A DNA stretch of 55,913 bases from a virus (Duplodnaviria; Heunggongvirae; Uroviricota; Caudoviricetes): positions 1-55,913 of IMG/VR virus record IMGVR_UViG_2778261121_000001; one strand, written 5' to 3'. Below are positions 12,366-55,511 of this stretch, in pieces (the first letter of the stretch is position 1; every line of letters starts with the position of its first letter). The translations under genes and the position numbers were made by a program. A model generated the notes under the pieces. The model was not told the origin of the DNA. It did no database searches and was given only the letters and a program-made list of their open reading frames with translations.

Positions 12366-12426
12366 GTGTTTTTCTCTTATCGTTTAGTTACTACATTCTT
12401 ACACAAATTAAGTAAGCATTTACCTA

Positions 12427-14112
12427 TCATTTAACGCGTTTGAAAACGTATACGCTGACTGTGATCCCGGTATCTTCAAACTCGTTGGTAAACGACTTCC
12501 CTTTGGCATAAACGTAATTATCCATCGTCATCCAGCTCAGGATTGGCGCAGTGCCCGGCAATACTGCTACAAGACGACCGCCGAGTTTCAGATGCCCCAG
12601 CGCAGCCAGCGTGTGCTCTCTATGACGACCAAGCGAGTACGGCGGGTTCATAACGATTTTGTCGAACTGATAACCTGCGTTGTCCTCAGACCACTTTATG
12701 AAGTCGCAGCAAATCGTGTTCGTATACCCTTTTCCACGCAGGATATCAGCGAAGAGAGGTGCGATTTCTATGCAGGTAACATCTTCCAGATCGGCGTTAA
12801 TATAGGCCAGAAGATCCCCACGTCCGGCTTGAGGCTCCAACAGCTTCTCACCAGGCTTCAATTCAGTGGCTCTTGCAACGTACTCAGCAATCAAGCGTGG
12901 GGTAGGGTAGAACTGGTGTGATTTTGTATCCGGTATTAAACCGGTAGCCACAATCGTATTTAGCGTATGGCCGATGTCATACGGGAACTGCCAGTGCTTT
13001 TTCTCCTGCACGCCGCCAATGAAGCTCAGTGTGCGCTCAAGCTCTTCCACCTGCGACTTCTGGAGAGCTGAATCAGAGAAGTACCATACGCCTTTGTCTT
13101 TGCTCAATCGCCCGTCACGAAGCGCAGTGCGAACCGGCACGGAGATCGTCTTCTGGATTAACCCGAACTGCTTTGGTGCCCGTGTTTTTGGCGCAGTTCG
13201 GCATGGCGCGGGAATTGCAGCAGGCATACTGTAAGCCAGCACCTCATTCAACTTCCAGGCCACGTCAGGATGTATTTCAAAGTGAACGTTGCCGTTCTTG
13301 AACATCTTCACGCGCATCAGATTTCCATCGACGTTCATCCAGTCACCGGTCTGGCAGTCGTTTGCCCGATACGCAGCTGATAGCACCTCAGCAGTGCGGT
13401 TGATGGTAATAAATTCTTTGTGCGCGAAGAAATGAAGCAAGACACGCAGATCGTCGATGTAGTCCTCTTTGCGATAGTTCACGCTAACGCTGTCCCGCCA
13501 GAAATCAGAAATGCAGTCAGCGATTATCAGACGCTCGCTGAAACCGTTTGTCTTATTTGTCTTGTGCGCAGGACTCAGCGCCTTAAACAAGCCATACACG
13601 CGCTCAGAGAGATATTTGTGCCTGTCATTCAGCAAATTAAGCATCGTGGGTATGACCGTTTCTGCTTTGAACTCCGGTACACCAACGAACTCTTTAACCT
13701 TCATCTGGTAGCCGGTTCTGTCAGTTTTGATGACTTCCTGTTTGCCCTCTATAAACTGCTCGCGCCACTCATCTCGACGGGAAGCTGGCATGATCAGCAA
13801 AACGTTAGTCATGTCCGTGACCTTCCTCCAGTACTCGGCCCAAATATTCTGTTTCACCCATTCCAGATCGACTTTATCCAACCAACCTCGATTTAAACGC
13901 GAGCGATCTTCATCTGGTCGATGGTTTAGTCTCAGCAGGCGATTAATCATGTTGTGGCGTTCGTCGCCATAAACGAAGTCGTGAACCTGATACATGAAGG
14001 CGATCTCTTTCTCGCACTCGGCCACAATTTCGTGGATGACGTTCATTTCCTGCCGATAGTCGATAGCAGTGTTTGAGTTGGCATCGTCGATGATGGAAAG
14101 GGCTGTATTCAT
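12427..14112 (-). CDS. DNA amino-methyltransferase (C-terminal NPPY domain) fused to a ~380-aa N-terminal domain of unknown function
   Basis: C-terminal FYPTP, LEPQAGRGDL (motif I) and NPPY (motif IV); N-terminal domain has no recognisable motif. Confidence 0.7.
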   Translation of the reverse strand: MNTALSIIDDANSNTAIDYRQEMNVIHEIVAECEKEIAFMYQVHDFVYGDERHNMINRLLRLNHRPDEDRSRLNRGWLDKVDLEWVKQNIWAEYWRKVTDMTNVLLIMPASRRDEWREQFIEGKQEVIKTDRTGYQMKVKEFVGVPEFKAETVIPTMLNLLNDRHKYLSERVYGLFKALSPAHKTNKTNGFSERLIIADCISDFWRDSVSVNYRKEDYIDDLRVLLHFFAHKEFITINRTAEVLSAAYRANDCQTGDWMNVDGNLMRVKMFKNGNVHFEIHPDVAWKLNEVLAYSMPAAIPAPCRTAPKTRAPKQFGLIQKTISVPVRTALRDGRLSKDKGVWYFSDSALQKSQVEELERTLSFIGGVQEKKHWQFPYDIGHTLNTIVATGLIPDTKSHQFYPTPRLIAEYVARATELKPGEKLLEPQAGRGDLLAYINADLEDVTCIEIAPLFADILRGKGYTNTICCDFIKWSEDNAGYQFDKIVMNPPYSLGRHREHTLAALGHLKLGGRLVAVLPGTAPILSWMTMDNYVYAKGKSFTNEFEDTGITVSVYVFKRVK

Positions 14113-14154
14113 AATTGCACCATTAAGAAGTGATTTGTTTAATGGTGCAATTAT
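14111..14154 (-). promoter_or_regulatory. perfect 16-bp inverted repeat sequestering the methyltransferase start codon
   Basis: ATAATTGCACCATTAA-N12-TTAATGGTGCAATTAT; the ATG at 14110-14112 lies at the base of the stem; no U-tract follows. Confidence 0.5.
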
Positions 14155-14215
14155 TTCAAAAATGAAAAGGTACTAAATAGAAATAAACAGGCAATCCTTC
14201 AAATAAAGGCATTGG

Positions 14216-14830
14216 CTAATCATACTTGGAGGTATTTATCACCAGAATTTTGTTTGTATAAATCTTCTTAATATCCCATGTGACATTACCGGAATACCAT
14301 TGACCGTTATATACTTGGTTTCCAGTTGCACCTGTCATTGTTACATAGACAGGTCTGTCGTAATCGGTTCGTCTATAGTTATATACTCCAACCATAGCAG
14401 GCATTACCGCACATGGATACCCCATATCTATTGTAAATTGAGGGTCAGAAATAGTGATAAGTTTCGCATCAAGGGGCATCATCTCACCGTGATACACCAT
14501 TGCGCCTGCGCTGTTATACATGGCAATGCCATAGCCAGAATGTGGTAACACCATATCAGAAAAAGCATAAACTGTTATTGTTCCGGGGCTACCATTTACC
14601 TGATGCAATCTGAGAGCATTGTATCCGTTACTATGCTCATGAATAAACATCATGTTCGCCTTATTACTGCTTTTTATGAAAAAAAAACATGATTTGTTTG
14701 ATGGGATTGATGTTTGAAAAACAGAACCTTTAGATGTAGACATTGTCCCTTTATTAATCAGATTTTGCGGAGTAAATTCTGGACTCATCCACAAACTTCC
14801 ATCTGATTGAGTAATTGACATCCCGAACAT
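14216..14830 (-). CDS. hypothetical protein (204 aa), AT-rich cassette gene 2
   Basis: ATG at 14828-14830 with GGGGA Shine-Dalgarno 2 nt after the upstream stop; visibly lower GC than its surroundings; contains a T9 tract. Confidence 0.4.
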   Translation of the reverse strand: MFGMSITQSDGSLWMSPEFTPQNLINKGTMSTSKGSVFQTSIPSNKSCFFFIKSSNKANMMFIHEHSNGYNALRLHQVNGSPGTITVYAFSDMVLPHSGYGIAMYNSAGAMVYHGEMMPLDAKLITISDPQFTIDMGYPCAVMPAMVGVYNYRRTDYDRPVYVTMTGATGNQVYNGQWYSGNVTWDIKKIYTNKILVINTSKYD

Positions 14831-14832
14831 AA

Positions 14833-15114
14833 TTATCCCCAGTATGTGTATATGTAAGAACCAAGCCCCGTATATAAATTTGACCAACTAACCGTATTTC
14901 CATTAATAGTAACATTTGGAACAGGTAAATTGATGTAGTTGTCGTTGTTAAGAGGCATTAATGACCACACGGCATGTAGTGATTTACCCGGTGGCGGATT
15001 AGAGTACGTCTTAGAGCCTGATGACGCCGTAAATCGATCAAGAAAAAAAATAGGTGTAAGGAAGCCAGTAACGTTAATTCCTTTATTGTTGTAAATCCCT
15101 GTACCGTATGCCAT
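14833..15114 (-). CDS. hypothetical protein (93 aa), AT-rich cassette gene 1
   Basis: ORF with AAGGATGA Shine-Dalgarno; AT-rich; contains a T8 tract. Confidence 0.4.
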   Translation of the reverse strand: MAYGTGIYNNKGINVTGFLTPIFFLDRFTASSGSKTYSNPPPGKSLHAVWSLMPLNNDNYINLPVPNVTINGNTVSWSNLYTGLGSYIYTYWG

Positions 15115-15168
15115 TTTTCATCCTTGTTTTTATCAACATAATATGGCCGATCATGCGGCCATATCAGA

Positions 15169-15738
15169 TCAATTAGAGCTTTGAAAGGCTTTGTGTGGTT
15201 GTGTTGCGAGGTTATGTCGATGGCTTAACTCACGCATCATGTCTTCAAGGCGACTCTTTGTGTCGTCGAGTTGGTCGGCCATTGCTCCCAAAAGCTGACG
15301 AACGGCCATCGGATCATCGCTGTTTAGTGATGGCATTTTATAACCCGCCTGAGAAGACATAAGATTGAACGCAGACATCAACATCGTTAGAGAGGATTTA
15401 AGCCCAGCAATTTCACGATCTTTGCTGGCAATAATCGCCTCACTCTTGTTAGTGTCATCAGTTCGTTGAGTCTCGCTCACCATATCCAAAGTCGCCTGCA
15501 ACTTATCAGCGCGCTCTTTTTCAGCAAGATAATGAACACCGAAATGATGTGCTAAAGCTACAACCTGAGTTGGCTCTTCAAAGGTGGACTCAAAATTAAG
15601 TGCTGTAACCACTCTCTCAAATATGGAAACGTCTTCTATTCCTCGAAGAATGGCTAACATTTTGACCAGTTCATTAGCATCCATTTCTTCGAATAAGGCG
15701 TTTTGTTCATCAGCTATCGCTTTGCATTTCTTGCACAT
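15169..15738 (-). CDS. hypothetical protein (189 aa)
   Basis: ORF in conserved start context; 5'-leader motif at 15756-15775. Confidence 0.5.
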   Translation of the reverse strand: MCKKCKAIADEQNALFEEMDANELVKMLAILRGIEDVSIFERVVTALNFESTFEEPTQVVALAHHFGVHYLAEKERADKLQATLDMVSETQRTDDTNKSEAIIASKDREIAGLKSSLTMLMSAFNLMSSQAGYKMPSLNSDDPMAVRQLLGAMADQLDDTKSRLEDMMRELSHRHNLATQPHKAFQSSN

Positions 15739-15877
15739 GTGTTTTTCCTAATGCTTAAACAAGTTGTTTTCTTATTGGCTTTATTGTGATGTGGCATAAA
15801 AGGGGAGCAAGCTAAACGTAAAGGTGCAAACTCTCTATTTCGGTCAACGAAACACAAGGGCCATTTGGCCCTTGTCA

Positions 15878-17256: not shown

Positions 17257-17401
17257 GTGGACTCCATCCAGTGTCAGAAAGAGTTGCGGCTGGCGATTGC
17301 CAGCCGCCTTTCTCGTTCCATCCTGGAACTGTGTCTTACCGACACATTGTCATCCTGACGCCGATAAGATACATGATTTAAAATGATAGGTAAACACTTA
17401 C

Positions 17402-17995
17402 TTACTGCTTGTTGTAAACAAAACCAATATCTTTCTTGTGAGGCATATCTGCTGCGGAAAAAGCTGCGATCTTCGCGAGTCGATCACATATTTCATTTTC
17501 ACGATGCCCGGCGTGACCTTTAACCCACTTCCAGCGAATATTATGTCGACTTGCAGCCTCATCCAGACGCTTCCACAGATCAACATTCTTTACCGGTTTT
17601 TTGTCAGAAGTCACCCATCCATTGCGTTTCCACCATTTCATCCACTGTGTCATGCCGTTTTTCAGATACTGGCTATCAGAGTGCAAAATAACGTTGCATG
17701 GATATTTCAAACGCTCCAGCCCGATAAGTGCCCCCATCATCTCCATGCGGTTATTGGTGGTGCTATGAAAACCATCTGAGAACTCGCGTTCCTCACCACG
17801 ATACTGGAGAACTATACCGTAACCGCCCGGGCCACCCGGATTTTTAAGGCAAGAGCCATCACTGAAGATTTTCACGGTTTTAAGCTGGGGATTGAACTCT
17901 ACGACAGGCGTTGTGGAATTGGTGCGGGGAGAATTTTTGTTTTTGGCTTTTTTGCGAGTTTTTGCTTGCGATCGGGCTGGTGTCTTCGTCGTCAT
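17402..17995 (-). CDS. rnhA: ribonuclease HI
   Basis: High similarity to E. coli RnhA ([30 protein letters not shown]); start set at MTTKTP with AGGAG Shine-Dalgarno. Confidence 0.85.
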
Positions 17996-18580
17996 ATAAA
18001 CTCCTGAATCAAGCGCCGCGCCGATTTTTTTCCTCGCGCGTGCGCACACGCGTGCGTGTTAATAATTATTAAAATAAACAAATTACTTCCCAGAACAGGT
18101 TTTTATAAACCTGAACTGAACGAACGAAGTGAGTGAAGTTCACCTCGAACGAAGTGAGAGGTTGTCTTTTCAGGTAATACTCTCCCAGGGAGGTGAGTAT
18201 AAAAATCCCTCACCAACCTGGTCGTTTCATAACCTGAAAAGTCATGGTCTAAGTCTACTGCCAGCTTAGACTTGGGAAGTTATGGATGACAGCACCCCAG
18301 AACCGAGATCTTCCCACACTTTATGAAGGGGAGTACTGGATTCAACCTCTCGAAACACCCCAGACTCGACAATCATAAAGTGACCCTTGTCTCTGCTCAC
18401 TTTGGTTCCCCCTTCCCCGACACCTAAACGGCACCAGTTCTACGCTGGTAGTGAGCTTTTTTTAAACCTGACGCCAGTGACGCTTACCCCCACCCATCAG
18501 GTCGAGTCTCCAGTCTACGACTGGAAACTATCAGATCTTAGCACTTACAAATCATCTTATGAATAGTTTGTACTTATCTA

Positions 18581-18811
18581 TCATTGCGATTGATTATTTT
18601 CTCGACCATGTAGTTGAACATTCAAGGCAAACACCTCGTTGATCAACTCACCTAAAAGCTGTTCAACAAGTTCGCGATGCTCCCCAAGATGCAAGCACTT
18701 AATTGCCCATTCGTACAAGTTGAAAGCCTGCTCGCGATCTTTCATCATTTCACGGGCCTGGGCCAGAAAATCGCTCTCTACGAGCGCAACGACATTAGTC
18801 GGGTATGACAT
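18581..18811 (-). CDS. hypothetical protein (76 aa)
   Basis: ORF; start set at the ATG with AAGGA Shine-Dalgarno. Confidence 0.4.
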   Translation of the reverse strand: MSYPTNVVALVESDFLAQAREMMKDREQAFNLYEWAIKCLHLGEHRELVEQLLGELINEVFALNVQLHGRENNQSQ

Positions 18812-18996
18812 GTTAGTTTCCTTAAAGTGATTCATAAAATCGATTTTAAAGCGTCTGGGAAGGGGTTCTAGTGGATTCTGTAGTGATGTTCAGGTCTGGA
18901 GTCTCTGATACAAAACAGCCTGCTTCCGTATATTAATAATTAATATGTAGTTATTTATATATACAGAAGCAGGCTAATTACAGACGCCAGAACAAA

Positions 18997-19590: not shown

Positions 19591-19654
19591 CTTCTTTCTC
19601 GATAGGTAAGTGATTACCTATTTTTGCATTTGATTTTATGTCTGGCAATCAAAT

Positions 19655-24425: not shown

Positions 24426-24595
24426 AAAAACCTCACAAAGATAAGTAATTACTTATTCATCGTGTGAGTTTACATTCATTGAGAGAACAAGACCAGACAG
24501 ATAAAAAAATGGTGGCCATAGGCCACCAAAACGAATAGTCATTCCAGAGTTTTATTACGCATGTTAAATATACACAGATAGATAACTACCTACAA

Positions 24596-29140: not shown

Positions 29141-29174
29141 ATGTTAATAGATAAGCACTTACCTATCAATGAAA

Positions 29175-35198: not shown

Positions 35199-35320
35199 AT
35201 CCACTATAGAGAGCGAATAATCCACTATAGGGAGCAAAGCAACCACTATAGAGAGGAGAAAAACCACTATAGACGGTAGGATAACCGCTGTGATGAGTGC
35301 TACTATCCACTGTAATCAGC
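35199..35320. repeat. iteron array B (6 copies, ~21-bp period)
   Basis: ATCCACTATAGAGAGC-type repeats at 35199, 35220, 35241, 35263, 35284 and 35305, directly upstream of repA. Confidence 0.7.
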
Positions 35321-37117: not shown

Positions 37118-37452
37118 TATCCAACCTCCTTGCAGTCATCGAAAAGGTAGCTTTGCTGAGAAGCGTGAACGCCATAGAAGCCCTTGTATTTGTTGTATAC
37201 GAAGTGGTCTTCTCCGACGCCGGTTAATTTGCCATTACGGTTTGTGAGATATGGGGATGACAATACTCGATCGTCACGCACAACATAGAACTGGTCGCCG
37301 CTGTCTACGACCATCGCTCCATATGGTGCTTTTATGACGTCGGTAAGAGCGCCATTCTTAACGTCGGCTACAGACATTTCACACTGATAAACAGTGGTGT
37401 CGGCCACAACGATCGAAGAAAGGAACAACAGCGCGAATGGGATGGCCTTCAT
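37117..37452 (-). CDS. secreted protein (111 aa, cleavable signal peptide, two Cys)
   Basis: N-terminal MKAIPFALLFLSSIVVA signal-like segment. Confidence 0.5.
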   Translation of the reverse strand: MKAIPFALLFLSSIVVADTTVYQCEMSVADVKNGALTDVIKAPYGAMVVDSGDQFYVVRDDRVLSSPYLTNRNGKLTGVGEDHFVYNKYKGFYGVHASQQSYLFDDCKEVG

Positions 37453-37628
37453 GCTGCCACCTCTTTGATTACATCAAATGCTGAATTAAATACGAGCACG
37501 ATAGCCAAAGCGTTTATGACTACGTCGTTCACCGGGGAAAAGACTTTACGAATGACACCAGTGAAAATGCAGTCGATGACAAAAGCTATTGACACGATGA
37601 GCAACAAGTATTCAATAAAAATCTTCAT
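37449..37628 (-). CDS. candidate small membrane protein (59 aa)
   Basis: Hand-translated hydrophobic ORF with ATGA overlap to the downstream gene; no clear Shine-Dalgarno. Confidence 0.3.
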   Translation of the reverse strand: MKIFIEYLLLIVSIAFVIDCIFTGVIRKVFSPVNDVVINALAIVLVFNSAFDVIKEVAA

Positions 37629-37667
37629 GATAGGTAGATACTAACTTATATAAATTTTACTGTAAAC

Positions 37668-39581: not shown

Positions 39582-39609
39582 TGATAAGTAAGCACTTATA
39601 TATTTTCAA
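39582..39609 (-). promoter_or_regulatory. sigma70-like promoter TTGAAA-N17-TATCAT overlapped by the palindromic operator-like motif
   Basis: -35 at 39604-39609 and -10 at 39582-39587 on the minus strand; TAAGTGCTTACTTA lies in the spacer. Confidence 0.45.
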
Positions 39610-42258: not shown

Positions 42259-43247
42259 TACCTTTCGAATGGAAGAACAAACACTTCAAGGTCTTCAAGG
42301 AACGAACGGAAATTCAGCTCGTAGCACAGTTGCTCGAATGCTTTCACGTCACGATTGCCTTTGATTGTTTCGATTTCGGTAGGCGGAAACTTCGTCTCAA
42401 TCAGGTTCATTAGCGTGATGTTTCTCTTGAACGCTTCGAGCATTCGACAGCCTGTTTTCTCGTTGAAGGCATTCTTCGCTAGTTTGTTGAAGGCGGTCTT
42501 ATGACGCCCTTTATTAACCACGATTGAGCCGTCGTTGATGCCGCGTACCATCGTTGCGACACTTCCCCATTCATGCAGCAGCTCTTTCGCACCGCCAGCA
42601 CCAATGCCTCCAACACCGCTAATGTTGTCCGAGTTATCGCCTTGTAATGCTTTTGCTTCCAAAAATGCGCGAGGCGTGGCGAATCCTGTCAGCTCCGCAA
42701 ATTGCTCAAAATTAACCTGCTTGTTTTTGGCGTCTTCACGCAGGCTTACCCAGCTTACGTTTTCGCGAACTAACTGAAGCCAGTCGCTATCGCCTGTTAA
42801 CAGATAGATGTGTTCAACGATTGGCTGCGGTGCAATACTGGATACCAGCAGCCCGGCCAGATCATCCGCTTCTGCATCTTTTGCAATGAGTTGGGTAACT
42901 CCAAGCGCGGTCATCATTTTGAGGATGTATGGCTTCTGGATAGCAAAGCCTTCCTTCATCTTTTTTATATCAGGGTCGTTGTCGCGATTTGCCTTGTAAT
43001 CCGGGTAAAAGTCGCGACGCTTGTCACTAAATCCATCCCAAAGAATCATAGGTCGGGCATGGAGGATGGAGGCATAACGACGAACGTTCTTAACGAAGCC
43101 GAAAGCAGCCTGTACTTCCATTTCGCCGTTATACAATTTGTCAGATTTTTGGTGGTAATAACCCAGGCTATTGCCATCTACGAAGAGATAATTCACCGGT
43201 ACATTCCTTCCAAAAAGTAAGGCGTCCGTAGACGCCTTACTGGTCAC
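42252..43247 (-). CDS. 5'-3' exonuclease / flap endonuclease
   Basis: N-terminal YLFVDGNSLGYY start typical of the Pol I 5'-exo/FEN family; helix-hairpin-helix GIGAGGAKEL; GTG start lies inside the upstream hairpin. Confidence 0.7.
   Translation of the reverse strand: MTSKASTDALLFGRNVPVNYLFVDGNSLGYYHQKSDKLYNGEMEVQAAFGFVKNVRRYASILHARPMILWDGFSDKRRDFYPDYKANRDNDPDIKKMKEGFAIQKPYILKMMTALGVTQLIAKDAEADDLAGLLVSSIAPQPIVEHIYLLTGDSDWLQLVRENVSWVSLREDAKNKQVNFEQFAELTGFATPRAFLEAKALQGDNSDNISGVGGIGAGGAKELLHEWGSVATMVRGINDGSIVVNKGRHKTAFNKLAKNAFNEKTGCRMLEAFKRNITLMNLIETKFPPTEIETIKGNRDVKAFEQLCYELNFRSFLEDLEVFVLPFERYC
43212..43240 (-). terminator. terminator-like hairpin downstream of the SSB gene
   Basis: GTAAGGCGTC-TACG-GACGCCTTAC followed by UUUUU on the minus strand. 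Confidence 0.5.
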
Positions 43248-44285: not shown

Positions 44286-44402
44286 GTGTTTCTCCTTGTT
44301 GTGATTTGGCCGATGGCGCTATGCGCGTTGGGCTTTCGTTCATTCGTGGCTCTTTCGAACTGTTAAATAATAGATCAGTACTTACTTATTATCTATCAAA
44401 AA

Positions 44403-44959: not shown

Positions 44960-46129
44960 TCACGTCTTAATAGTTTCTGCTACGTCGGCTAATATAGCTT
45001 CTAGTCGTTCTCCCTCTTCAGGTCTGAAGTAAAGAATGTTGGGGTTAAACCCGTAAAAGACAGTAACGTCAAGGTCTGGAAGATACTCCTTCCTGCCGAC
45101 CAAATCGGATGGCTTGTTTTTGTTGTTAAACAATGAAGTTGCCCGGCTGCCACACGTCAGCACATAGGTCGGACGCACCAGATTGATCTCTTCACGCATA
45201 AAGTCGGTGAACTGGCCGATCTCGTCTTTGGTGTAGTCTTTTTCTTTGTCTTTAACCTTCTTGCAAACGCCTGTGACATAGAGATCGCCCATGCGTAAAT
45301 CTCCAGCCGTCAATAGCTTGGCCTTAAAATCGTCGTATCCGTTCTCCATAAAGTAACCGGTTCGAGCATCATTGCCGTTCGCATTGTCCAGAATGATCAT
45401 GATTTTCGGCTTAATACCAATGCTGGGGCGGATTAGTTCATCACCTAAGCCCATTTCAGCCGCCATCCGTGTCATGAGCACGTTAATCTCAGCCGAACGT
45501 TTGGGGTTCATCTCAAACGGACGTGAGGCTTTAACTGCGTCTATGACAAGATTTCCCATCAATTCAGCCTGGTCGCGTAGGCGCTCTGGATCAGTTGCTG
45601 GCAGACTACCTGGCTCGATGGATGCAAACGCCCCTACTTTTTGCAGCGATTCGCGCACTCGACTATTACAGGCACGTTTCTCGACAGCTTCTTCGAATTG
45701 CGCAAGTGACTCGAATTTGCCACCAACCTTTTCTCGCGCTCTCATGATGGCCTGGCAGCCATTCTCAGAACACCCCTTCACAGCAGAGAAGGGCGCATAC
45801 AGCACCTGGCTGCCATCTTCAAGCGTGCGGATCTCGATTCGGTTAGATGACACGTTAACGTCTGGTGGCAATACGCGAATACCATAGGTCAGCGCATCTT
45901 TAACCAGCCCCTGGTGTTTATCTTCGCCAAGAATAGTGAGAGCAGCAGCGAAAAACTCTGCGGGATAATGAGTTTTCAACCACATAGATTGATAACTGAT
46001 CAAGGAGTAAGCAACAGAGTGTGATTTGTTAAAGGCGTATCCACCGAACTTTTCAAAGGCGTCCCATATTTCCTGGGCTTTCTCAGGGCTAAGACCTTCC
46101 TGCTCGGAAATAACTTTTGCAATTTTCAT
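44960..46129 (-). CDS. DNA polymerase III alpha (DnaE) C-terminal fragment
   Basis: Begins MKIAKVI...FEKFGGYAFNKSHS, aligning with the DnaE fingers region; own ATG in the conserved GGGAAAACACATG context. Confidence 0.75.
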   Translation of the reverse strand: MKIAKVISEQEGLSPEKAQEIWDAFEKFGGYAFNKSHSVAYSLISYQSMWLKTHYPAEFFAAALTILGEDKHQGLVKDALTYGIRVLPPDVNVSSNRIEIRTLEDGSQVLYAPFSAVKGCSENGCQAIMRAREKVGGKFESLAQFEEAVEKRACNSRVRESLQKVGAFASIEPGSLPATDPERLRDQAELMGNLVIDAVKASRPFEMNPKRSAEINVLMTRMAAEMGLGDELIRPSIGIKPKIMIILDNANGNDARTGYFMENGYDDFKAKLLTAGDLRMGDLYVTGVCKKVKDKEKDYTKDEIGQFTDFMREEINLVRPTYVLTCGSRATSLFNNKNKPSDLVGRKEYLPDLDVTVFYGFNPNILYFRPEEGERLEAILADVAETIKT

Positions 46130-46149
46130 GTGTTTTCCCGTTGCTAGCT

Positions 46150-46851
46150 TCAAATGCTTGCTTTTTTTAAGATATTTGCGATTTGAGTGTTAGATATGCC
46201 GAATTTTTCTCGCAACTTTTCGTAGGTTGCGCCAGCTTTGCGCAAGGCGACCACTTCAGCTCTTGCTTCGTCATCCAGCTTTTTGGATGCCCTTGAGGCA
46301 ACGATCGGCCCACCAATACGTGCCCATTTCTTCCCGGTGACGATATGGTGAATATAAAGCTCAGTTAAACCATATTCGGCCGCGAGGTCTTTGTTCAGAG
46401 CACCCTCTGACTTTTTAATGCGAATAGCAATGACGACTTCGTTGGTTAGCTTGGCGTTGTAGCGCCTCTCACCAAACTCAACGGTATCGTGTGCAATGGC
46501 GTCAGCCATGTTGTCGACTTGAGTGCCATACGCGAGATTGAAGGGCGCATTGTTTGATGGTTTACCGTCAAGATGACGAATAAGTAAGCCTTCTGGTCGT
46601 TCTCCGTGGAATGCAGTTGCTACCAGATAATGAACTGTGCGGTCGTATTTGACGCCGTTGACGCTTAGTTTCACGCCAAGATGTCCAAAATCATTGATTA
46701 CGCGAGGTTTTAGGATTTGCCCCTTCTTCACCCATTCGCCCCCTTTGGGGGCTGTTTGTATAACATCTAATGAGCGAATGCGTCCTAAACTGGATGCTTC
46801 GTAATAACCTTCAAATTCAGGAATAGATTTCCAAACTTCTTCCACCGTCAA
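46150..46851 (-). CDS. HNH homing endonuclease inserted within dnaE
   Basis: 233-aa ORF in a different frame from both dnaE halves, overlapping the upstream stop and ending 18 nt before the downstream ATG; family assigned from the split-gene context, no HNH or NUMOD motif checked. Confidence 0.6.
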   Translation of the reverse strand: MTVEEVWKSIPEFEGYYEASSLGRIRSLDVIQTAPKGGEWVKKGQILKPRVINDFGHLGVKLSVNGVKYDRTVHYLVATAFHGERPEGLLIRHLDGKPSNNAPFNLAYGTQVDNMADAIAHDTVEFGERRYNAKLTNEVVIAIRIKKSEGALNKDLAAEYGLTELYIHHIVTGKKWARIGGPIVASRASKKLDDEARAEVVALRKAGATYEKLREKFGISNTQIANILKKASI

Positions 46852-49211
46852 ACTCCAAAATCAACAATATCAGCGTTGTCACTCATCGCTTCGTCATAGG
46901 TCCTGCGTTTGCCGTCAGAGCACAGCAGCATGGCCTTTTTGTGGACTTCTACTGTGCTTCCGTCTTCAAGTGACAGTGTCACCCAGCCTGCTTGTGCTCG
47001 TTCTACAAAATCGCTGCCGATCGCTTTCATCTTTTCCATGTTCTTCTTACCGATGGCGGAACGCAGAGCATCAGCCTCCGCCATAGAGAATCCAGCGAGC
47101 ACACGAGAGCTTTTCATAATTTGCTCTTGATAGAGCAAAACGCCGTTAGTTTCTTTGGTTGTTTCCTCAAGACGAGGATGAATTGAATGTGGAGCCATAA
47201 AACCTTTGGCGACAGAAACATAGTCATCCAACATGCCTGACTGAATTGGCCCCGGCCGGAAGAGCGCAGTTGTAGCAACAACCGTTTTAAAGCTCATTGG
47301 CTCAATTCCACCACCTAAATCTTTAAGCAGCTTGCGCATTGGGCCTGATTCAAGCTGGAAAACACCTTGAGTGTACCCAGCAGCAAAACCATCCAGCACC
47401 TTGCGATCCTCAAGAGAAATGGCATCAAGATTGATATCTTCACCTGTGTTCTCTTTTATGTAGCGTTTTGCACTATCGAGCAAATCGAGAGTTGCCAGGC
47501 CAAGCACGTCTAGCTTAATTAGGCCCATAGCCTCGCAGTAACGCTTGTCAAATGCGATACAACGCGCGTCACCACGGCGTTCAACCGGTGTACGTTCTGT
47601 CAGAGGAACACCTGCTACGATCATCCCTGCCGCATGTCTACCAAAGCCACGCATAAGGCTTTGTAACTTGCAGGCTGCATTGAATGCATCAGGATATTTT
47701 GTTGCGTATTTGTCGAGACTTGCCAGTTGTTCGCGCAGCTCTTCCAATGGAAGGCTATCATCCTCGACGTTCTTCAGTTCTTTTGATACCGCCATATCTG
47801 CGGACTCCACACCATAAATACGAGCGGTGTCACGTAGTGCAGAGGCTGCGCCCAGGTAGGTGAAGTTCGGAATGCCTGCAACGTAATCTTCGCCGTAGCG
47901 TTCATTCAGATACTCGATCACCTCATGGCGACGTGCCTGGCTGAAGTCCAAGTCCGCATCTGGCAAGTCGAGACGCTCAGGGTTGATGAAACGCTCAAAC
48001 AGAAGACCGTGACGGATTGGGTCGACGTTGGTTATGCCTATGCACCACGCCACCAGAGAACCGGCAGAGGAACCACGACCAGGCCCGACAGGAATGCCAG
48101 TTTCACGGCTGTGATTCATCAGATCGCGTACCATCAGGAAGTAACCACAAAATCCCAGGCGAGTCAGCGTGTCCATTTCGTACTTAAGCCGTTCAACATA
48201 AATCCTGTTCTCAGAAGCCGGTGGTGTGTAGCCAAACTCTTTTGTGGTAAGACGTTTACGCAGCCCAGCAACGGCCAGTTTCATCAGCGTTGCAGGCTCG
48301 TCGTCTGCCATCTTTGGCAGTGCTGGTGGCAATTCATGCCAGCGCCATGTGCAGGCATCGATAATGGTATCCTGCGTTGTTGAGGCCATTGCAGCTGTTA
48401 CCGGCACATCCATGCGAACGGAGAAGGCTTTAAGAGCCTCAAGGAGATGGCGGCGACCATTGACGGCGTTATCTCGCTGGTGGGGGATACGCAGACGATG
48501 CGGCTGGTCGATTTTGATGTTGTTCGTAACCATGTGCGCAATGTCTTTAATGTCTGCATCGTCGATCGATTCGTAATAAGCGGGATAGAACGCTACTGGC
48601 TCTATTTTCAGTGCTCTGGCGACTTTCATCGCCCGGACGTTAATCTGGTCGTAGAATGGTGTAGGGTGCGGATAAACCACACTATAGAAGTTGTCTTTTC
48701 CACCTGCTGTAATCAGTGAGCTTATGATTTTTGCAAAATCGTTGCGTTGGAACACGCTACCGATGTCGGAAGTGAGCAGGATGATGTTGCCTTTGGCATA
48801 TGTAGAAACCAACTGTTCGAGCGAGAGACGCGGTACAAAGTAGAACTGTTCTCGTGTGTTGGCCACCGTCATTAGTTCGCAGATGTCGCGATATCCTTGC
48901 TCATTTTTAATTAGAGCGGTAAACGAGTAGTTACGTCCTCGCTCTAATGATTCCATACATCCCTTAGACTCTTTAGCAAGTTTAGCCCGGTACTCGTATG
49001 TGGGATCATCAACGATATTTAGTTTCACACCACAAATAACCGCCATGTCGTCACCAGCGGCACGTTGTAGTGGAATAACACTCGCAATATTCATGCTATC
49101 TGCTGAAATTACAGCGGTGTAGCCAGCTTCTCTGGCAATCTTCACCGCGTTTTCCGCTTTTAAAGCCGACTCCCCAAGTGAGAAGTCAGTTCGAACCATC
49201 AGTGCCTTCAT
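46848..49211 (-). CDS. DNA polymerase III alpha (DnaE) N-terminal fragment (PHP and polymerase core)
   Basis: 787 aa aligning with the DnaE N-terminal two thirds; conserved start context. Confidence 0.85.
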   Translation of the reverse strand: MKALMVRTDFSLGESALKAENAVKIAREAGYTAVISADSMNIASVIPLQRAAGDDMAVICGVKLNIVDDPTYEYRAKLAKESKGCMESLERGRNYSFTALIKNEQGYRDICELMTVANTREQFYFVPRLSLEQLVSTYAKGNIILLTSDIGSVFQRNDFAKIISSLITAGGKDNFYSVVYPHPTPFYDQINVRAMKVARALKIEPVAFYPAYYESIDDADIKDIAHMVTNNIKIDQPHRLRIPHQRDNAVNGRRHLLEALKAFSVRMDVPVTAAMASTTQDTIIDACTWRWHELPPALPKMADDEPATLMKLAVAGLRKRLTTKEFGYTPPASENRIYVERLKYEMDTLTRLGFCGYFLMVRDLMNHSRETGIPVGPGRGSSAGSLVAWCIGITNVDPIRHGLLFERFINPERLDLPDADLDFSQARRHEVIEYLNERYGEDYVAGIPNFTYLGAASALRDTARIYGVESADMAVSKELKNVEDDSLPLEELREQLASLDKYATKYPDAFNAACKLQSLMRGFGRHAAGMIVAGVPLTERTPVERRGDARCIAFDKRYCEAMGLIKLDVLGLATLDLLDSAKRYIKENTGEDINLDAISLEDRKVLDGFAAGYTQGVFQLESGPMRKLLKDLGGGIEPMSFKTVVATTALFRPGPIQSGMLDDYVSVAKGFMAPHSIHPRLEETTKETNGVLLYQEQIMKSSRVLAGFSMAEADALRSAIGKKNMEKMKAIGSDFVERAQAGWVTLSLEDGSTVEVHKKAMLLCSDGKRRTYDEAMSDNADIVDFGV

Positions 49212-50627: not shown

Positions 50628-50722
50628 GCGTTTTTCCTTTGTTCTCTAATGAGCGTTCAACTTCTTATATAAATATACCATTAACTATCGTAAGTGGTTA
50701 CTTATCATTAAGGCTGTTTTAT

Positions 50723-52929: not shown

Positions 52930-53142
52930 TTAACAGATTCTGACGGCTAAAGACCCGGAGCCGGTATTGAGAAGCGTGAAGCGTTTGTTGTTAAGTTCGA
53001 ATATAAAGCCAGTTGTGTCATTCACACCAACCTGAATCTGCTCATTCGGTAGATCGGTGAGGATGTCAGCTACACACTCATCAGCTAATTTCTGTACGTG
53101 TCCGATCTCAAGAGCGATTAGGCTGGAAATAGTGGTTTTCAT
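52930..53142 (-). CDS. hypothetical small protein (70 aa), divergent from the HTH regulator
   Basis: ORF in track; position suggests a Cro/Coi-like role. Confidence 0.4.
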   Translation of the reverse strand: MKTTISSLIALEIGHVQKLADECVADILTDLPNEQIQVGVNDTTGFIFELNNKRFTLLNTGSGSLAVRIC

Positions 53143-53393
53143 TCAATCAATCCATTCTAACTTATACTATGGTAAGGAATACTACTAAAATTTGTATCAA
53201 TACTGAATACATCTATATCAGATGCAAGTTAATTTTCTTACCTATTTGGGGCTAGTTTTTCTCCATGCATGGACCTTTGCTCGGTCTTACAAGTGCCTGC
53301 CGAAAAAAATGATAATAGCTTTACAACCCTAACCTTTGATGTAATATCGGTAAGCACTTACCAGAGAGAATTAAACGCGCAAAGGTTGTAACA

Positions 53394-53780
53394 ATGTCTG
53401 ACAACAAGATTGAATTTATAGAAAGTCGCTATGCTGCTTTTATCGCAGGGCTGATTGAATCCTCACCTATGAGTCAGGCACAAATAGCCCGACTTATTGG
53501 TTATAAAAATGCCAACAACCTTTCTTTAATTAAAAGTGGCAAAATTCCTTTGCCTATCGATAAGGTTCGTCCGTTGGCGCTGGCGCTGGGTATTGAGCCA
53601 AGTCGTCTTATGATGATGGTGCTGGAAGAACGCCAACCTGAACTCGCAGCATTTTTATACAAAGAAGGCACCGCTCCTCTTAACGAGGACGAAAAACAGG
53701 TTCTTGCTGCATATAACGAGCGATTCGGTAAAGAGAAAGGCGCATCACAAAAGGTTGTTGAGGCCATAAAGTCTCTATGA
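53394..53780 (+). CDS. helix-turn-helix (XRE-family) transcriptional regulator, candidate repressor
   Basis: HTH MSQAQIARLIGYKNANNLSLIKSG; GGTAAGCACTTACC palindrome at 53349-53362 upstream. Confidence 0.65.
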   Translation: MSDNKIEFIESRYAAFIAGLIESSPMSQAQIARLIGYKNANNLSLIKSGKIPLPIDKVRPLALALGIEPSRLMMMVLEERQPELAAFLYKEGTAPLNEDEKQVLAAYNERFGKEKGASQKVVEAIKSL

Positions 53781-54878
53781 AAAATTTACACGAATAAGCT
53801 CTGTTGATAGACGATCTCCCTTGAATTTGTGGTCAATTTCGTCTAAATCCGGTTGCTCTACGATTGATGCGATGTACGTCGAGAAACTTTCTAAGGCGTC
53901 TCGCATCTCGTCCATATAATCGTGTCGGTCGTAGACCCGATCTATCCCCTCAAGACTGTGGTTCATGATTTTGCGTGATACCTCCTGGCTTATGCCTAAT
54001 GCTGGGAAGTAACTACGCGCAGTACGGCGCAAATCTCGGGGTGTAAATGGCTCAAGCTCCATCAGTTCTGGTCGTTCCAGAATACGACGTAATGCCTGGG
54101 CTATTGCCACTTTAGACATAGGAAGGTCTTTCCCGATTTTTTTATTCGAAGGCACGAGCCACTGGCTGCCTTTACCGTATTCGAACAACTCTTCAATACA
54201 TGTGCGCATTAATGTGCTTAAAGGCAGCGAATGCTCACGGGCAGATTTGTTCCTCTTGCCTTGATTCCAAACCCCACGCTTAAGATTGAACTCACTTTTT
54301 TTAGCCCGCAGTACTTCGTCAGGTCGTCTTGCGGATACAAGACACAGCCTGGCCGCCCATTTTGTACCAGCGCACACATTGAAGTAGTCCCATATATTCC
54401 AGAACACCCATACCTCTGCGTCGGTCAGCTTCCGCTCGCGAGGTGTTGGCTTTGCGCCACCGGCAACTTTGTTTAGTGACATATCATTTAACGGTGACAC
54501 ATCGATCATCCCCTGGAAGGCACACCAGCTAAGGAACTGCTTCATCAGAGAGAAAACGCGGCGGCCCATAACAATTTTGCCATCCAGTATTAGAGGGTTG
54601 ACCAGTTGGTTCACCATGAACCTATTAATGTCACTTACTTTTACATCGGCAATGTGCGGCAAAACATGTATCAAAATACAATGAACAGCGATCTCTGGCC
54701 GACGTCTTGTTATCAGCAAAGATAAGCGAGTGAATAACATGAATGCGTCCGAGAATCTCATGTCATTGCTGACCTGGGAGATCATAACGGCCTGCATTTG
54801 AGATGCTCTTTCGAGATACTCAATCGCCTCTTTTGAGGTGTTCTCCGCAGCGCGTGCTCTGTCAAAGCTATTTTTCAT
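53775..54878 (-). CDS. tyrosine site-specific recombinase (integrase/Cre-like)
   Basis: C-terminal catalytic signature R...HSLR...Y (PRDLRRT, NHSLEG, YDRHDY). Confidence 0.8.
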   Translation of the reverse strand: MKNSFDRARAAENTSKEAIEYLERASQMQAVMISQVSNDMRFSDAFMLFTRLSLLITRRRPEIAVHCILIHVLPHIADVKVSDINRFMVNQLVNPLILDGKIVMGRRVFSLMKQFLSWCAFQGMIDVSPLNDMSLNKVAGGAKPTPRERKLTDAEVWVFWNIWDYFNVCAGTKWAARLCLVSARRPDEVLRAKKSEFNLKRGVWNQGKRNKSAREHSLPLSTLMRTCIEELFEYGKGSQWLVPSNKKIGKDLPMSKVAIAQALRRILERPELMELEPFTPRDLRRTARSYFPALGISQEVSRKIMNHSLEGIDRVYDRHDYMDEMRDALESFSTYIASIVEQPDLDEIDHKFKGDRLSTELIRVNFS

Positions 54879-54976
54879 ATGACAATCACCGAGTTACGCC
54901 GATGCACTGTATAAGTAAACAGTATATTAGGCATAGATTCTTATAGGATCAAGAGTCAAAGTAACTCATTTTTAGT

Positions 54977-55009
54977 AATGATTCCATACATAGTAGGTAT
55001 GGAATCATT
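54977..55009. other. candidate recombinase target site: 13-bp perfect inverted repeats around a 7-bp spacer
   Basis: AATGATTCCATAC-ATAGTAG-GTATGGAATCATT, 99 bp upstream of the recombinase start. Confidence 0.5.
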
Positions 55010-55061
55010 TAGACGTTGTTTTTTGAATTTTAAGGGAAACAGGAGTGAGTGTTTGGTGGGA

Positions 55062-55087
55062 ATAAAAAACGGCTCCTGTGAGCCGTT
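55062..55087 (-). terminator. intrinsic terminator downstream of the glutaredoxin gene
   Basis: AACGGCTC-ACAGG-AGCCGTT followed by UUUUUAUU on the minus strand. Confidence 0.45.
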
Positions 55088-55091
55088 AAAA

Positions 55092-55337
55092 TCAGAGGGT
55101 GCTGACATGTGCGGCCAGCTCTGTGTATCCGCCAATCGGTTGACCATCGATCAGCACTTGGGGGATAGTCTCTACCGGTTTACCAACAATTTCACTTAGT
55201 TTTTCCTTGTCGATACCGGCAGTGGTGATGTCGATGTACTCATAATCACCGTAGCCATGTCCCTTTAGTTGCTTCGCCAGCTCGACCGCACGTTTGCAGT
55301 ATGAGCAGTTATCTCGTCCGTAGATAGTGATCGTCAT
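55092..55337 (-). CDS. glutaredoxin (Grx1/NrdC-like)
   Basis: CSYC active site; C-terminus GKPVETIPQVLIDGQPIGGYTELAAHV closely matches E. coli GrxA; start set at MTITIYG with GAGGT Shine-Dalgarno. Confidence 0.75.
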   Translation of the reverse strand: MTITIYGRDNCSYCKRAVELAKQLKGHGYGDYEYIDITTAGIDKEKLSEIVGKPVETIPQVLIDGQPIGGYTELAAHVSTL

Positions 55338-55511
55338 TGTTACCTCGTAGAATTGATATGTAACTTTACTTACAAAGAAGATAGGTATGTGCATACCTAT
55401 CTTTGCAGTCTGCATTATAAAGCTATTAAAGCCTCGATCAATCTATTAATTAAGGCATTGTTTGGTTAACATTAGCCTAATATTTTATAGTTAGTAGAGT
55501 GAAATACATAC

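Follow-up and report, generated by a model that had tools for sequence, protein, structure and literature searches.

A recurring intergenic palindrome as a candidate operator set for an element-encoded repressor in an SSU5-like phage-plasmid

Results

A 20-bp palindrome recurs between the genes of the element

The window, a 55,913-nt stretch of DNA analysed at its full length, is an SSU5-like phage-plasmid with 97% identity to Escherichia phage Cyrano. Its intergenic regions carry a recurring motif that had been described in an initial annotation as inverted half-sites around a TAAG-N-CTTA core. The inverted symmetry was borne out, and the element is better described as one perfect 20-bp palindrome, ATAGGTAAGT/ACTTACCTAT, uninterrupted over its length and centred on GTAC or GTGC. 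The position counts give ATARGTAAGT and its mirror image, with the two halves varying independently, as in a two-fold symmetric site. The best-conserved blocks of the halves lie ~10 bp apart, as expected for a helix-turn-helix (HTH) dimer.

Mismatches were counted against the consensus ATAGGTAAG-NN-CTTACCTAT, and 11 window sites had no more than 4 of them, compared with 0.16 expected from Markov simulations. We then scanned the window with a symmetrised position weight matrix trained on the sites of phage SSU5 only. At a threshold of ≥ 12 bits the scan returned 13 sites, compared with 0.36 expected and a maximum of 4 in 200 simulations; the expected count was 0.135 when the simulated sequence was given intergenic composition. 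The recurrence of the motif is therefore real. Enrichment in intergenic over coding DNA had been set beforehand as the test of its significance, and all 13 sites, called with the true gene starts, were intergenic, in a window of which only ~10% is intergenic. Positions 1–12400 held no site, the best match there scoring 9.4 bits. Eleven of the 12 places listed in the initial annotation proved to be strong sites, though one listed span (37629–37636) took in a single half-site and another (44377–44397) was shifted by 7 bp. The twelfth, listed at 50689–50707, is a degenerate and doubtful site at 50686–50705 between cobT-like and cobS-like genes (8.3 bits, 7 mismatches), which retains a GTAA-N4-TTAC core.

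Beginning at the left, an operator-like palindrome at 12408–12427 (23.7 bits) covers the stop codon of a DUF4942 gene, with the ATG of an Ead-like gene (12365) 42 nt downstream and orthologous sites in Cyrano (84620) and SSU5 (84178). The palindrome at 17386–17405 (25.3 bits) covers the stop of the RNase H gene, 129 nt ahead of the next gene, and is kept in SSU5 at 79904. A weak operator-like site (18562–18581; 13.2 bits) lies upstream of a small gene homologous to CYRAN_81 (18266–18400) and has a better-matching counterpart in SSU5 at 78709; a second further weak site was found at 18943–18962. The near-consensus site at 19602–19621 (26.9 bits; relatives aligned) ends 11 nt before the ATG of the adenine methyltransferase gene, and a predicted promoter, TTGCCA-17-AAAAAT (19648–19620, minus strand), would place it at about −8 to +12. 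The start of thyX likewise follows 11 nt downstream of the site at 24437–24456 (21.4 bits), where two registers overlap; one of these is the 16-bp perfect palindrome 24441–24456 that had been singled out before, and in SSU5 the orthologous site (72511) shows the regular 20-bp palindrome.

Between the ruvC-like gene and nrdA, the near-consensus site at 29147–29166 (27.3 bits) is overlapped by a predicted promoter, TTGATA-17-TAACAT, and followed by a terminator-like hairpin (29140–29119). Further sites lie 112 nt upstream of sbcD (33831–33850; 26.2 bits) and between the uvsY-like gene and the gp32-like SSB gene (44370–44389; 25.0 bits). The site at 37630–37649 (21.7 bits) ends 1 nt short of the ATG of a small gene (37449–37628) and is covered by two predicted promoters, TTTACA-17-TAGTAT and TTTATA-16-TATCAT. 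At 39584–39603 (23.9 bits) the putative operator fills the spacer of a strong predicted promoter, TTGAAA-17-TATCAT (39609–39581, minus strand; 10/12 match), which confirms an overlap reported in the initial annotation; a terminator (39639–39619) stands just upstream. The site upstream of the glutaredoxin gene (ATG 55337) lies at 55381–55400 (24.6 bits), shortly after the predicted promoter TTGATC-16-TATAAT (55441–55414, minus strand), which would place it at about +7 to +26. The poorest match outside its core is the site at 53346–53365 (13.6 bits), where the match is limited to the 14-bp core GGTAAGCACTTACC.

The sites are kept across SSU5-like relatives

Coding sequence makes up 87% of the complete Cyrano genome, and of its 28 sites 27 are intergenic. 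Gaps shorter than 20 bp hold none, and 22 sites have co-directional genes on either side. They precede both early and late genes, for replication, nucleotide metabolism, recombination, structure and lysis, and the junctions that carry them include terL/portal, tail M/L, tail J/fibre and fibre/holin. Among loci in IMG/VR with the exact consensus, 41 of 42 were SSU5-like. Orthologous sites occur at the same positions in SSU5 (~80% DNA identity), a comparison that had been proposed earlier, and in Yersinia pMT1/pFra and Klebsiella relatives. Acinetobacter relatives carry a variant motif (11 sites compared with 1.5 expected), and the variant in K. oxytoca relatives has a shifted half-site, with T at motif position 4 in 31 of 52 half-sites compared with 3 of 42 in Cyrano.

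The sites overlap predicted promoters in many registers

Predicted promoters scored higher in gaps with a site than in gaps without one (median 7.55 versus 6.35, p = 0.018). The best sigma-70-like promoters had their −10 elements at offsets of 17, 20, 11, 6, −4, −18, 30 and others from the motif. Such a variable register of the overlapping promoters is operator-like behaviour, as with operators elsewhere. The motif often ends 1–13 nt upstream of a start codon, and a terminator-like hairpin directly follows 3 of the Cyrano sites. About half of the sites stand without a convincing promoter, in tight gene junctions, so that the earlier description of the motif as lying at operon starts applies to about half of the set.

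An XRE-type HTH gene lies next to one of the sites

The candidate master repressor is a 128-aa HTH protein (53394–53780, plus strand), a homologue of CYRAN_45. Its match to Pfam HTH_19 was weak, below the curated cut-off, and phrog_8 was matched at 6.6e-12. In the AlphaFold model, residues 10–85 (pLDDT ~87) form a five-helix N-terminal domain. The best Foldseek matches were Stl, C.BclI, C.AhdI, SinR, HigA and 434 Cro; the small HTH proteins among them had target TM-scores of 0.7–0.8, and E-values were weak, none of them ≤ 1e-3. The domain superposes on 434 Cro with an rmsd of 1.9 Å over 63 residues. As modelled, the protein is of the XRE-type fold. We found no recognisable signal-sensing or self-cleavage domain in it.

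The HTH gene was present in 961 plasmids, always beside the integrase gene and with the genus profile of SSU5-like plasmids, and its homologues were confined to contigs of about 100–116 kb. By this distribution it is a core gene across the SSU5-like family. The recognition helix, N-x-N-x-L-S-L-I-K, is conserved as far as Acinetobacter. The K. oxytoca lineage has an altered helix (NVNT in place of NANN) alongside its shifted half-site, a covariation that is confounded by the divergence of this element in nearly all its proteins. The gene is lost solely in the virulent phage SSU5, together with int and the 70-aa gene described below. The deletion junction of SSU5 was found in none of 822 related plasmids, the nearest of which are 92–96% identical at the junction. 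SSU5 sites are at least as near the consensus as those of Cyrano, though SSU5 lacks the HTH gene, so the sites may have a further role during lytic growth, or SSU5 may have undergone the deletion only recently.

The HTH gene and the 70-aa gene are divergently oriented, with the site at 53346–53365 between them; the core of this site is kept in three lineages. In these three lineages the core GGTAAGNACTTACC is directly downstream of a conserved predicted promoter of the HTH gene, TTTACA-16-TAATAT (53320–53347, plus strand), both hexamers of which are identical in the Yersinia and K. pneumoniae lineages. The site would span about −2 to +18 of this promoter, with the core at the predicted +1. The 70-aa gene (52930–53142, minus strand; phrog_2627, of unknown function) occupies a Cro-like position. 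On the other side, the integrase gene (53775–54878, minus strand) converges on the HTH gene and overlaps it. In front of the integrase gene a LexA box (54907–54922), conserved in 4 of 5 lineages, lies downstream of a predicted promoter, TTGATC-17-TAATAT. The box may provide the switch with an SOS input.

Published RNA-seq agrees with the sign expected for a repressor

Published RNA-seq of the LF82 lysogen showed the HTH gene expressed at 10 times background and the genes downstream of the sites at background (PMC9928086). The ParB-like genes CYRAN_119 and CYRAN_120 were likewise at background in the LB lysogen, at 5–9.5 normalised counts (PMC9928086, S1 table). In macrophages, no gene of the element was induced more strongly than the 70-aa gene (+6.4 log2), and the operon downstream of 37630–37649 was induced 6.3 log2 (PMC9928086). 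Integrase RNA rose from 5.6 to 10.3 log2 (PMC9928086). The genes downstream of 39584–39603 were induced 5.3 log2 in the macrophage RNA-seq. Across 21 sites, a better motif match went with weaker induction of the first downstream gene (Spearman −0.51, p = 0.019), a modest correlation that comes from macrophage infection and not from a clean induction; its negative sign is the one expected for a repressor.

Discussion

We propose that the palindromes are a dispersed operator set for an element-encoded dimeric master repressor, most likely the HTH protein at 53394–53780, and put the probability of this reading at roughly 65%. That one such repressor governs the set, possibly this protein, had been suggested in the initial annotation, and the suggestion fits the intergenic placement of the sites, their overlap with promoters and the predicted XRE-type fold. 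It gains further from the standing of the HTH gene as a core gene lost only in SSU5, from the site on its own predicted promoter and from its transcription in the lysogen (PMC9928086). Weighing against it are the well-kept sites of SSU5, which lacks the gene, the poor match of the site at the HTH promoter, the many sites that have no convincing promoter and the lack of a recognisable sensing or self-cleavage domain in the protein.

Dispersed operators of this sort have parallels. P1 is a plasmid prophage silenced by the C1 repressor at many scattered operators, with the repressor gene adjoining a tyrosine recombinase gene; the C1 operator is an asymmetric 17-mer with the consensus ATTGCTCTAATAAATTT, and the structural-gene operons of P1 are under indirect control, through Lpa. 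The resemblance to P1 noted earlier holds at the level of function, as an analogy only: many operators are dispersed over a plasmid prophage (13 in the window, 28 in Cyrano) and the candidate repressor gene is beside the element's tyrosine recombinase gene. It does not extend to the site, which is a 20-bp perfect palindrome, and ATTGCTCTAATAAATTT had no match with ≤ 3 mismatches in the window. In contrast to P1, the candidate is a 128-aa XRE-type HTH protein and not of C1 type, as judged by domain and fold, and sites also lie inside structural-gene operons. In the mycobacteriophage L5 and its cluster A relatives, ~30 stoperators bound by the gp71 repressor lie in short intergenic gaps of early and late operons, and repressor bound at promoterless junctions is thought to stop elongating polymerase. 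The present element resembles L5 in having tens of sites in short gaps over early and late operons (27 of 28 intergenic in Cyrano), and the sites without room for a promoter suggest that a similar roadblock may act here. The L5 sites are asymmetric 13-mers of fixed orientation relative to transcription, whereas those described here are symmetric, and host group, phage type and repressor family differ. We conclude that the putative operator set would act in the manner of the C1 operators of P1 or the stoperators of L5 and is homologous to neither.

The candidate itself can be compared with the Cro/CI-type (XRE) regulators of 434 and P22. It shares with them the five-helix HTH domain, whose predicted fold matches 434 Cro, C.AhdI, SinR and Stl, a palindromic operator whose half-sites are spaced by about one turn of the helix, and an operator on the repressor's own predicted promoter beside a divergent small gene. 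Lambdoid repressors use two operator clusters, unlike the ~28 dispersed single sites found here, and the HTH protein differs from them in lacking an S24 self-cleavage domain. On the IncP plasmid RK2, KorB, a ParB-family protein active in the plasmid state, globally represses many operons through a dozen or so dispersed OB palindromes. The present element likewise has one palindrome scattered over a plasmid, but its ParB-family genes are silent in the lysogen and are themselves downstream of a site.

Precedent of the KorB kind leads to the alternative that another element-encoded protein binds the palindromes, whether of the ParB family, the 70-aa Cro-like protein or a small unannotated one, and that the role of the HTH protein is merely local. 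Cyrano encodes two ParB_N proteins whose operon is preceded, at a distance of 18 nt, by a site. SSU5, which retains the sites, also conserves these two proteins and the small CYRAN_37, 62 and 123. Since lysogen expression of the ParB-like genes is at background, they cannot account for silencing in the plasmid state; no DNA-binding domain was recognised in the small proteins, and none of the candidates shares the conserved arrangement of the HTH gene, with a site on its own promoter. We regard this alternative as improbable. That the palindrome acts instead as an RNA stem-loop in polycistronic transcripts, as a processing site, a stabiliser or a translational operator just ahead of ribosome-binding sites, is scarcely credible. 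The 20-mer could form a hairpin of 8–9 bp, and sites frequently stand 1–13 nt before start codons, but covariation of pairing is absent. At position 4/17 on the sense strand of Cyrano, Watson–Crick pairs (11 of 22) were at chance level, and G-T mismatches (5) were no commoner than A-C mismatches (5). Since the halves vary independently and G-U is not favoured over A-C, conservation falling on sequence and not on pairing, we argue for a DNA site for a dimer and not an RNA hairpin. One site, in a divergent promoter region, precedes a gene encoded on the opposite strand, and an Rfam search at gathering thresholds gave no match for the palindrome.

A phage-encoded activator deserves more weight, though we still consider it unlikely. 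The palindrome would then be the recognition element of phage-specific promoters, at which the activator recruits host RNA polymerase, and would mark the start of lytic transcription and not its blockage; P1 Lpa, Mu C/Mor and P2 Ogr are precedents. The placement of sites upstream of genes, in gene orientation and in early and late modules, would suit such a protein, as would the lack of a −35 element at many sites and the retention of all sites by virulent SSU5, which lacks the HTH repressor. A TAnnnT hexamer made from the last three bases of the motif and its flank is found at offset 17 in 11 of 22 sites, but it is mirrored at offset −4 (10 to 14 of 22), which points to a symmetric AT-rich flank and not to a fixed promoter geometry. 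A −10 element at offset 17 would moreover have transcription begin at the start codon or within it at no fewer than 6 sites, where the motif is 1–13 nt from the ATG, and the best promoters overlap the sites in many registers with no fixed −10 distance. The terminator-like hairpins directly after three Cyrano sites, the site at +1 of the repressor gene's own predicted promoter and the lower, not higher, induction with a better motif also speak against an activator. The sites are not confined to one temporal gene class, and domain and phrog annotation of the element's proteins yielded no activator candidate.

The analysis shows the motif itself, with its statistics, symmetry, conservation and placement between genes, and the properties and distribution of the HTH gene. 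Under the preferred reading, a repressor at dispersed operators, we infer from these that a protein binds the sites, which protein it is, that its effect is negative, that it acts as a roadblock and how induction proceeds. In the plasmid (lysogenic) state the repressor would be made from its own promoter, limiting that promoter through the operator at about +1, and would occupy about 28 sites over the ~108-kb genome, 13 of them in the window. Where a site lies over a sigma-70 promoter, anywhere from the −35 element through spacer and −10 to the 25th base of the transcript, the repressor would block initiation; in a tight promoterless junction it would probably block RNA polymerase reading through from genes expressed in the plasmid state. 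Loss of repression, probably via the SOS input, would free early and late genes together, and strong promoters with weak operators would fire first.

Taken together, the observations allow a fuller and more tentative picture, against which we would still place the odds: an SSU5-superfamily system of symmetric 'stoperators' switched by SOS via a LexA-controlled integrase promoter (box at 54907–54922). One XRE-type repressor at about 28 single palindromes would silence an entire 100-kb lytic programme, acting at promoters and, within operons, also as a roadblock to elongation. RNA from the integrase promoter would cross the convergent and overlapping repressor gene in antisense before reaching the 70-aa gene, the first one on the lytic strand. 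A repressor circuit of this type has so far not been described for the widespread SSU5-like family, and the superfamily takes in relatives of Yersinia pestis pMT1 and Salmonella Typhi pHCM2, the plague and typhoid plasmids.

Dispersed palindrome in an SSU5-like phage-plasmid

By megablast, the window belongs to the siphovirus phage-plasmids of the SSU5 group: it is 96.9% identical to the Escherichia phage Cyrano (pLF82), ~98% to many 100-115 kb E. coli plasmids and ~80% to Salmonella phage SSU5. Records of related plasmids numbered more than 800 and came from Klebsiella, Escherichia, Enterobacter, Yersinia (including Yersinia pestis), Salmonella and other genera; the RuvC-like protein, used as a route to related loci in species genomes, yielded only 4 close loci. 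The window corresponds to Cyrano ~39.8 to 94.3 kb in reverse complement, and nearly all of its genes therefore lie on the minus strand.

The initial annotation had described a palindromic motif recurring between genes, and the motif was present at every place listed. Among its 12 spans, 50689-50707 is weak (8.3 bits), the span at 44377 was off by 7 bp and only a half-site had been listed at 37629. A scan against ATAGGTAAG-NN-CTTACCTAT found 11 window sites with at most 4 mismatches, compared with 0.16 in Markov simulations. With a symmetrised matrix, for which SSU5 sites alone served as the training set, 13 window sites reached the threshold of 12 bits (0.36 expected; 0.135 for sequence of intergenic composition). 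By gene coordinates transferred from Cyrano, all 13 fall between genes, though ~90% of the window is coding, and the matrix scan gave no site in positions 1-12400. The comparison with SSU5 suggested at the outset revealed sites at the same junctions there.

In Cyrano, the same matrix detected 28 sites, 27 of them intergenic in a genome that is 87% coding; the sole exception lies within a clean TTGAAA-17-TATGAT promoter at the 3' end of the portal gene. Gaps between co-directional genes hold 22 of the Cyrano sites, and none occurs in the 40 gaps shorter than 20 bp. The genes behind the sites serve replication, recombination and nucleotide metabolism, or encode the portal, scaffold/capsid, tail tube, tail L, tail fibre and holin proteins. 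No site was found at genes needed in the plasmid state, namely repA, parA, toxin-antitoxin pairs and strongly expressed accessory genes.

When 2.9 million viral contigs were scanned for the exact consensus, 41 of the 42 loci found were SSU5-like. Yersinia pestis pFra/pMT1 and two K. pneumoniae lineages carry the motif as well. A K. oxytoca lineage carries a shifted half-site, ATATGTAWGT, with T at position 4 in 31/52 half-sites versus 3/42 in Cyrano, and Acinetobacter baumannii relatives carry TAGTAAG-NN-CTTACTA (11 sites versus 1.5 expected).

The palindrome as a double-stranded DNA site

Counting bases by position in 22 sites from Cyrano and 22 from SSU5 gave an uninterrupted 20-bp palindrome, ATA(A/G)GTAAGT followed directly by ACTTAC(C/T)TAT, in which the upstream half is slightly better conserved. 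The flanks are AT-rich and symmetric, often ATG...CAT or AAA...TTT, and about one helical turn separates the best-conserved block of one half from that of the other. The halves vary independently: the variable pair 4/17 is Watson-Crick in 11/22 Cyrano sites, which is the chance rate, and on the Cyrano sense strand G-T and A-C mismatches are equally frequent (5 each). An RNA stem tolerates G-U but not A-C. Rfam gave no match anywhere in the window. An RNA hairpin was rejected on the pairing statistics and the lack of an Rfam match. Since the halves are independent, G-T equals A-C and Rfam is silent, we conclude that the palindrome is a double-stranded DNA site, putatively bound by a symmetric dimer.

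A likeness to the T4 MotA box (TGCTTA within the motif) was rejected, as it lies 2 bp from the putative -10 rather than ~12 bp. A conserved TGTAAGAAT downstream of the motif, considered as an extended -10 or a third half-site, occurs at only a handful of sites.

Position of the sites relative to promoters

In a sigma-70 scoring scheme, 12/22 Cyrano sites had a nearby promoter above the 95th percentile of random windows, and about half of the sites had no credible promoter. Promoter scores were higher in intergenic gaps with a site (median 7.55) than in those without (6.35; one-sided p = 0.018). The register of motif to promoter varies: the site at 39584 fills the spacer of the TTGAAA-17-TATCAT promoter that had been predicted, and is indeed present, at 39609-39581; the site at 29147 overlaps the -35; that at 19602 covers -8 to +12; that at 55381 spans ~+7 to +26; and elsewhere the motif lies further downstream or upstream. 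Such variable register is typical of repressor operators, not of activator sites. Several sites are squeezed between a stop codon and the following ribosome-binding site. The Cyrano terL/portal site shares bases with the terL stop and leaves 10 nt (annotated gap) up to the portal ATG; the window site at 12408 overlaps a stop codon, and those at 19602 and 24437 both leave 11 nt up to an ATG. The apparent -10 at the 3' edge of the motif (TAT + CAT) is mirrored at the 5' edge and therefore reflects the symmetric flank. A general rule that the motif plus TATCAT makes a promoter was rejected, given this symmetric flank (ATG...CAT) and the many sites too near start codons.

The candidate repressor

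A 128-aa helix-turn-helix (HTH) protein is encoded by the ORF at 53394-53780; its Pfam match, HTH_19, is weak, and its match to phrog_8 (transcriptional regulator) is clear. In an AlphaFold model built with 19 homologues, an N-terminal five-helix domain was predicted with confidence. The best structural matches of this model were Stl, the controller proteins C.BclI and C.AhdI, SinR, HigA and 434 Cro; Foldseek E-values were weak and superposition on small HTH proteins was good. A sequence search against solved structures gave no match. By tblastn, the protein is encoded in 961 plasmids, always adjoining a tyrosine recombinase gene, with a genus profile almost equal to that of SSU5-like plasmids. 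Homologues in a large protein collection sit on contigs of ~100-116 kb, and those in a phage collection belong to SSU5-like phages only.

Upstream of the HTH gene, a TTTACA-16-TAATAT promoter is predicted, and neither hexamer differs between the E. coli, Yersinia and K. pneumoniae lineages. The core of the palindrome, GGTAAGNACTTACC, begins at the last two bases of the -10, and the predicted arrangement is the classical layout of negative autoregulation. The recognition helix N-x-N-x-L-S-L-I-K is kept from Escherichia to Acinetobacter, in line with the conservation of GTAAG at the core of the motif. In K. oxytoca, the lineage with the shifted half-site, the protein has NVNT where the others have NANN. 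This covariation was not accepted as proof of the binder and is only suggestive of the HTH protein, because the K. oxytoca element has diverged in almost every protein.

Published expression data

The Cyrano paper names CYRAN_45, the homologue of the HTH gene, as a putative master repressor, with expression at 10 times local background in LB-grown lysogens, and reports that ciprofloxacin induces Cyrano 39-fold (PMC9928086). In the lysogen RNA of the S1 table of that study, the genes behind sites are at background, as are two ParB-like genes, and at 6 h of macrophage infection a subset of genes is strongly up (PMC9928086). Induction in macrophages reached +6.4 log2 for the 70-aa gene (52930-53142, minus strand) divergent from the HTH gene (PMC9928086), +6.3 and +5.3 log2 for the operons behind Cyrano sites 59399 and 57446 (window 37630 and 39584), +4.1 log2 for the tail-tube gene directly after Cyrano site 9018 and, by our own reading of the same table, ~+4.7 log2 for the capsid gene, second downstream of the promoter-site at Cyrano 3527. 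The strongly induced genes have strong promoters and sites with more mismatches, and genes behind near-consensus sites (nrdA, dam) were silent in macrophages. Over 21 sites, a higher motif score went with lower induction (Spearman -0.51, p = 0.019), macrophage infection being a non-ideal condition for this comparison. The negative correlation is modest evidence; a repressor should give this sign, and an activator should not.

Weighing the explanations

The palindrome is very probably a regulatory DNA site that binds a protein, and it is likely that the site acts negatively. We estimate a probability of roughly 65% that the palindromes are a dispersed operator set for the XRE-type repressor, which would act at promoters and probably also roadblock elongating RNA polymerase at promoterless junctions. 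That the HTH protein at 53394-53780 is the binder is more likely than not. That the palindrome is instead an element of activator-dependent promoters is unlikely, as its register varies and induction falls as the motif score rises. Recognition by a different protein, either ParB/KorB-like or Cro-like, is very unlikely, and an RNA element is scarcely credible.

The likeness to P1 C1 operators put forward in the initial annotation holds for function but not for sequence: the P1 operator consensus is absent from the window, and the set belongs to neither the P1 C1 nor the L5 system. In their spread through late operons, the L5 stoperators are a closer likeness than P1. Both P1 C1 operators and L5 stoperators are asymmetric sites, and the candidate repressor here is of Cro/CI (XRE) type, unlike those of P1 and L5. 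Lambdoid systems have two operator clusters, whereas ~28 single dispersed sites are found here.

Absence of the candidate repressor module from SSU5

SSU5 has been described as virulent (PMC5427195). It lacks homologues of three proteins, namely the HTH protein, the recombinase and the 70-aa protein, and SSU5 42596-42761 is the counterpart of window 52930-54878 without the integrase, HTH repressor and 70-aa genes. The tRNA/cobT junction of SSU5 is shared by 0/822 related plasmids. It agrees with the repressor model that the single lytic isolate has lost the repressor module; since the module is missing and the junction is unique among the 822 plasmids, the data suggest that SSU5, the group's type phage, is a mutant that lost lysogeny control by deletion. 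The SSU5 sites show no decay, so either the deletion would be recent or the sites also matter in lytic growth.

A candidate SOS input

A LexA box close to consensus, TACTGTTTACTTATACAGT (54907-54922), lies behind a TTGATC-17-TAATAT promoter (~54923-54951, minus strand), 29 nt upstream of the integrase ATG, and is kept in 4/5 lineages. The integrase gene (53775-54878, minus strand) converges on the repressor gene with an overlap of 6 bp, and between it and the 70-aa gene lies only a weak terminator-like hairpin (53554-53538; 7 pairs, 3 G-C). Integrase RNA tracks that of the 70-aa gene over five conditions, and both are up in macrophage RNA-seq. Because of the LexA box, the convergent overlap, the weak hairpin and the co-varying RNAs, we propose, as a testable hypothesis, that SOS-driven transcription running antisense through the repressor gene would be the induction route.

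Upstream of the integrase promoter, an inverted repeat, ATGATTCCATAC-N7-GTATGGAATCAT (54978-55008), is kept in all five lineages examined and looks like a lox/dif-type core site; because of this adjacent repeat, the 'integrase' may serve to resolve plasmid dimers, like Cre of P1. Another LexA box, CTGTATACACATACAG (5323-5338), lies 19 nt upstream of the gene for a 129-aa S24 peptidase (UmuD-like; 4915-5304), which rises from 7.4 to 12.2 log2 in macrophages in published RNA-seq.

Other features of the element

Arrays of ~21-bp iterons resembling ATCCACTATAGAGAG (35198-35310 and 36420-36850) flank repA (35361-36416), and this is the plasmid replication origin region. A large inverted repeat at 18917-18975 consists of GC-containing arms of 17 nt (AGCCTGCTTCYGTATAT) around an AT-rich, operator-like loop of 25 nt. 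It occurs in three copies per genome (Cyrano 31163, 78088 and record ends; SSU5 33462, 78308 and record ends). In both linear phage records, one copy runs across the ends, immediately upstream of terS; a further copy comes after the parA operon. The repeat may act in termination, as a centromere or in packaging.

The dnaE gene appears as three consecutive ORFs (46848-49211, 46150-46851 and 44960-46153), and recA encodes 779 aa (39644-41983). At these regions (44960-49211 and 39644-41983), LAGLIDADG and Hint-domain proteins are annotated in related plasmids, which suggests that genes of replication and recombination contain inteins or homing endonucleases. In an Acinetobacter baumannii relative (NZ_CP061522.1), a sigma-70 family sigma factor is encoded at 15101-15766 between cobS-like and dnaE genes; no counterpart was seen at this position in the enterobacterial elements. 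Outside the window, CYRAN_114 (Cyrano 100780-101301) matches Pfam Flag1_repress (FljA, phase-1 flagellin repressor; E = 1e-80), and on this match the phage-plasmid may affect flagellin expression in its host. This FljA-like regulator was set aside as probably an accessory gene.

Implications for SSU5-like phage-plasmids

SSU5-like phage-plasmids are common in clinical Enterobacteriaceae, and some carry resistance genes. In the searchable non-subscription literature, no description of their lysis-lysogeny control was found, nor any earlier account of the palindrome or its regulon. A 2024 review on phage-plasmid regulation is silent about the group (PMC11652158), and the Cyrano paper goes no further than annotating a 'putative repressor' (PMC9928086). 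A defined sequence for the putative operator, together with candidates for the repressor and the SOS input, opens this gap to direct experiments. The palindrome also provides a sequence signature, from Escherichia to Acinetobacter, by which family members and immunity types can be recognised.
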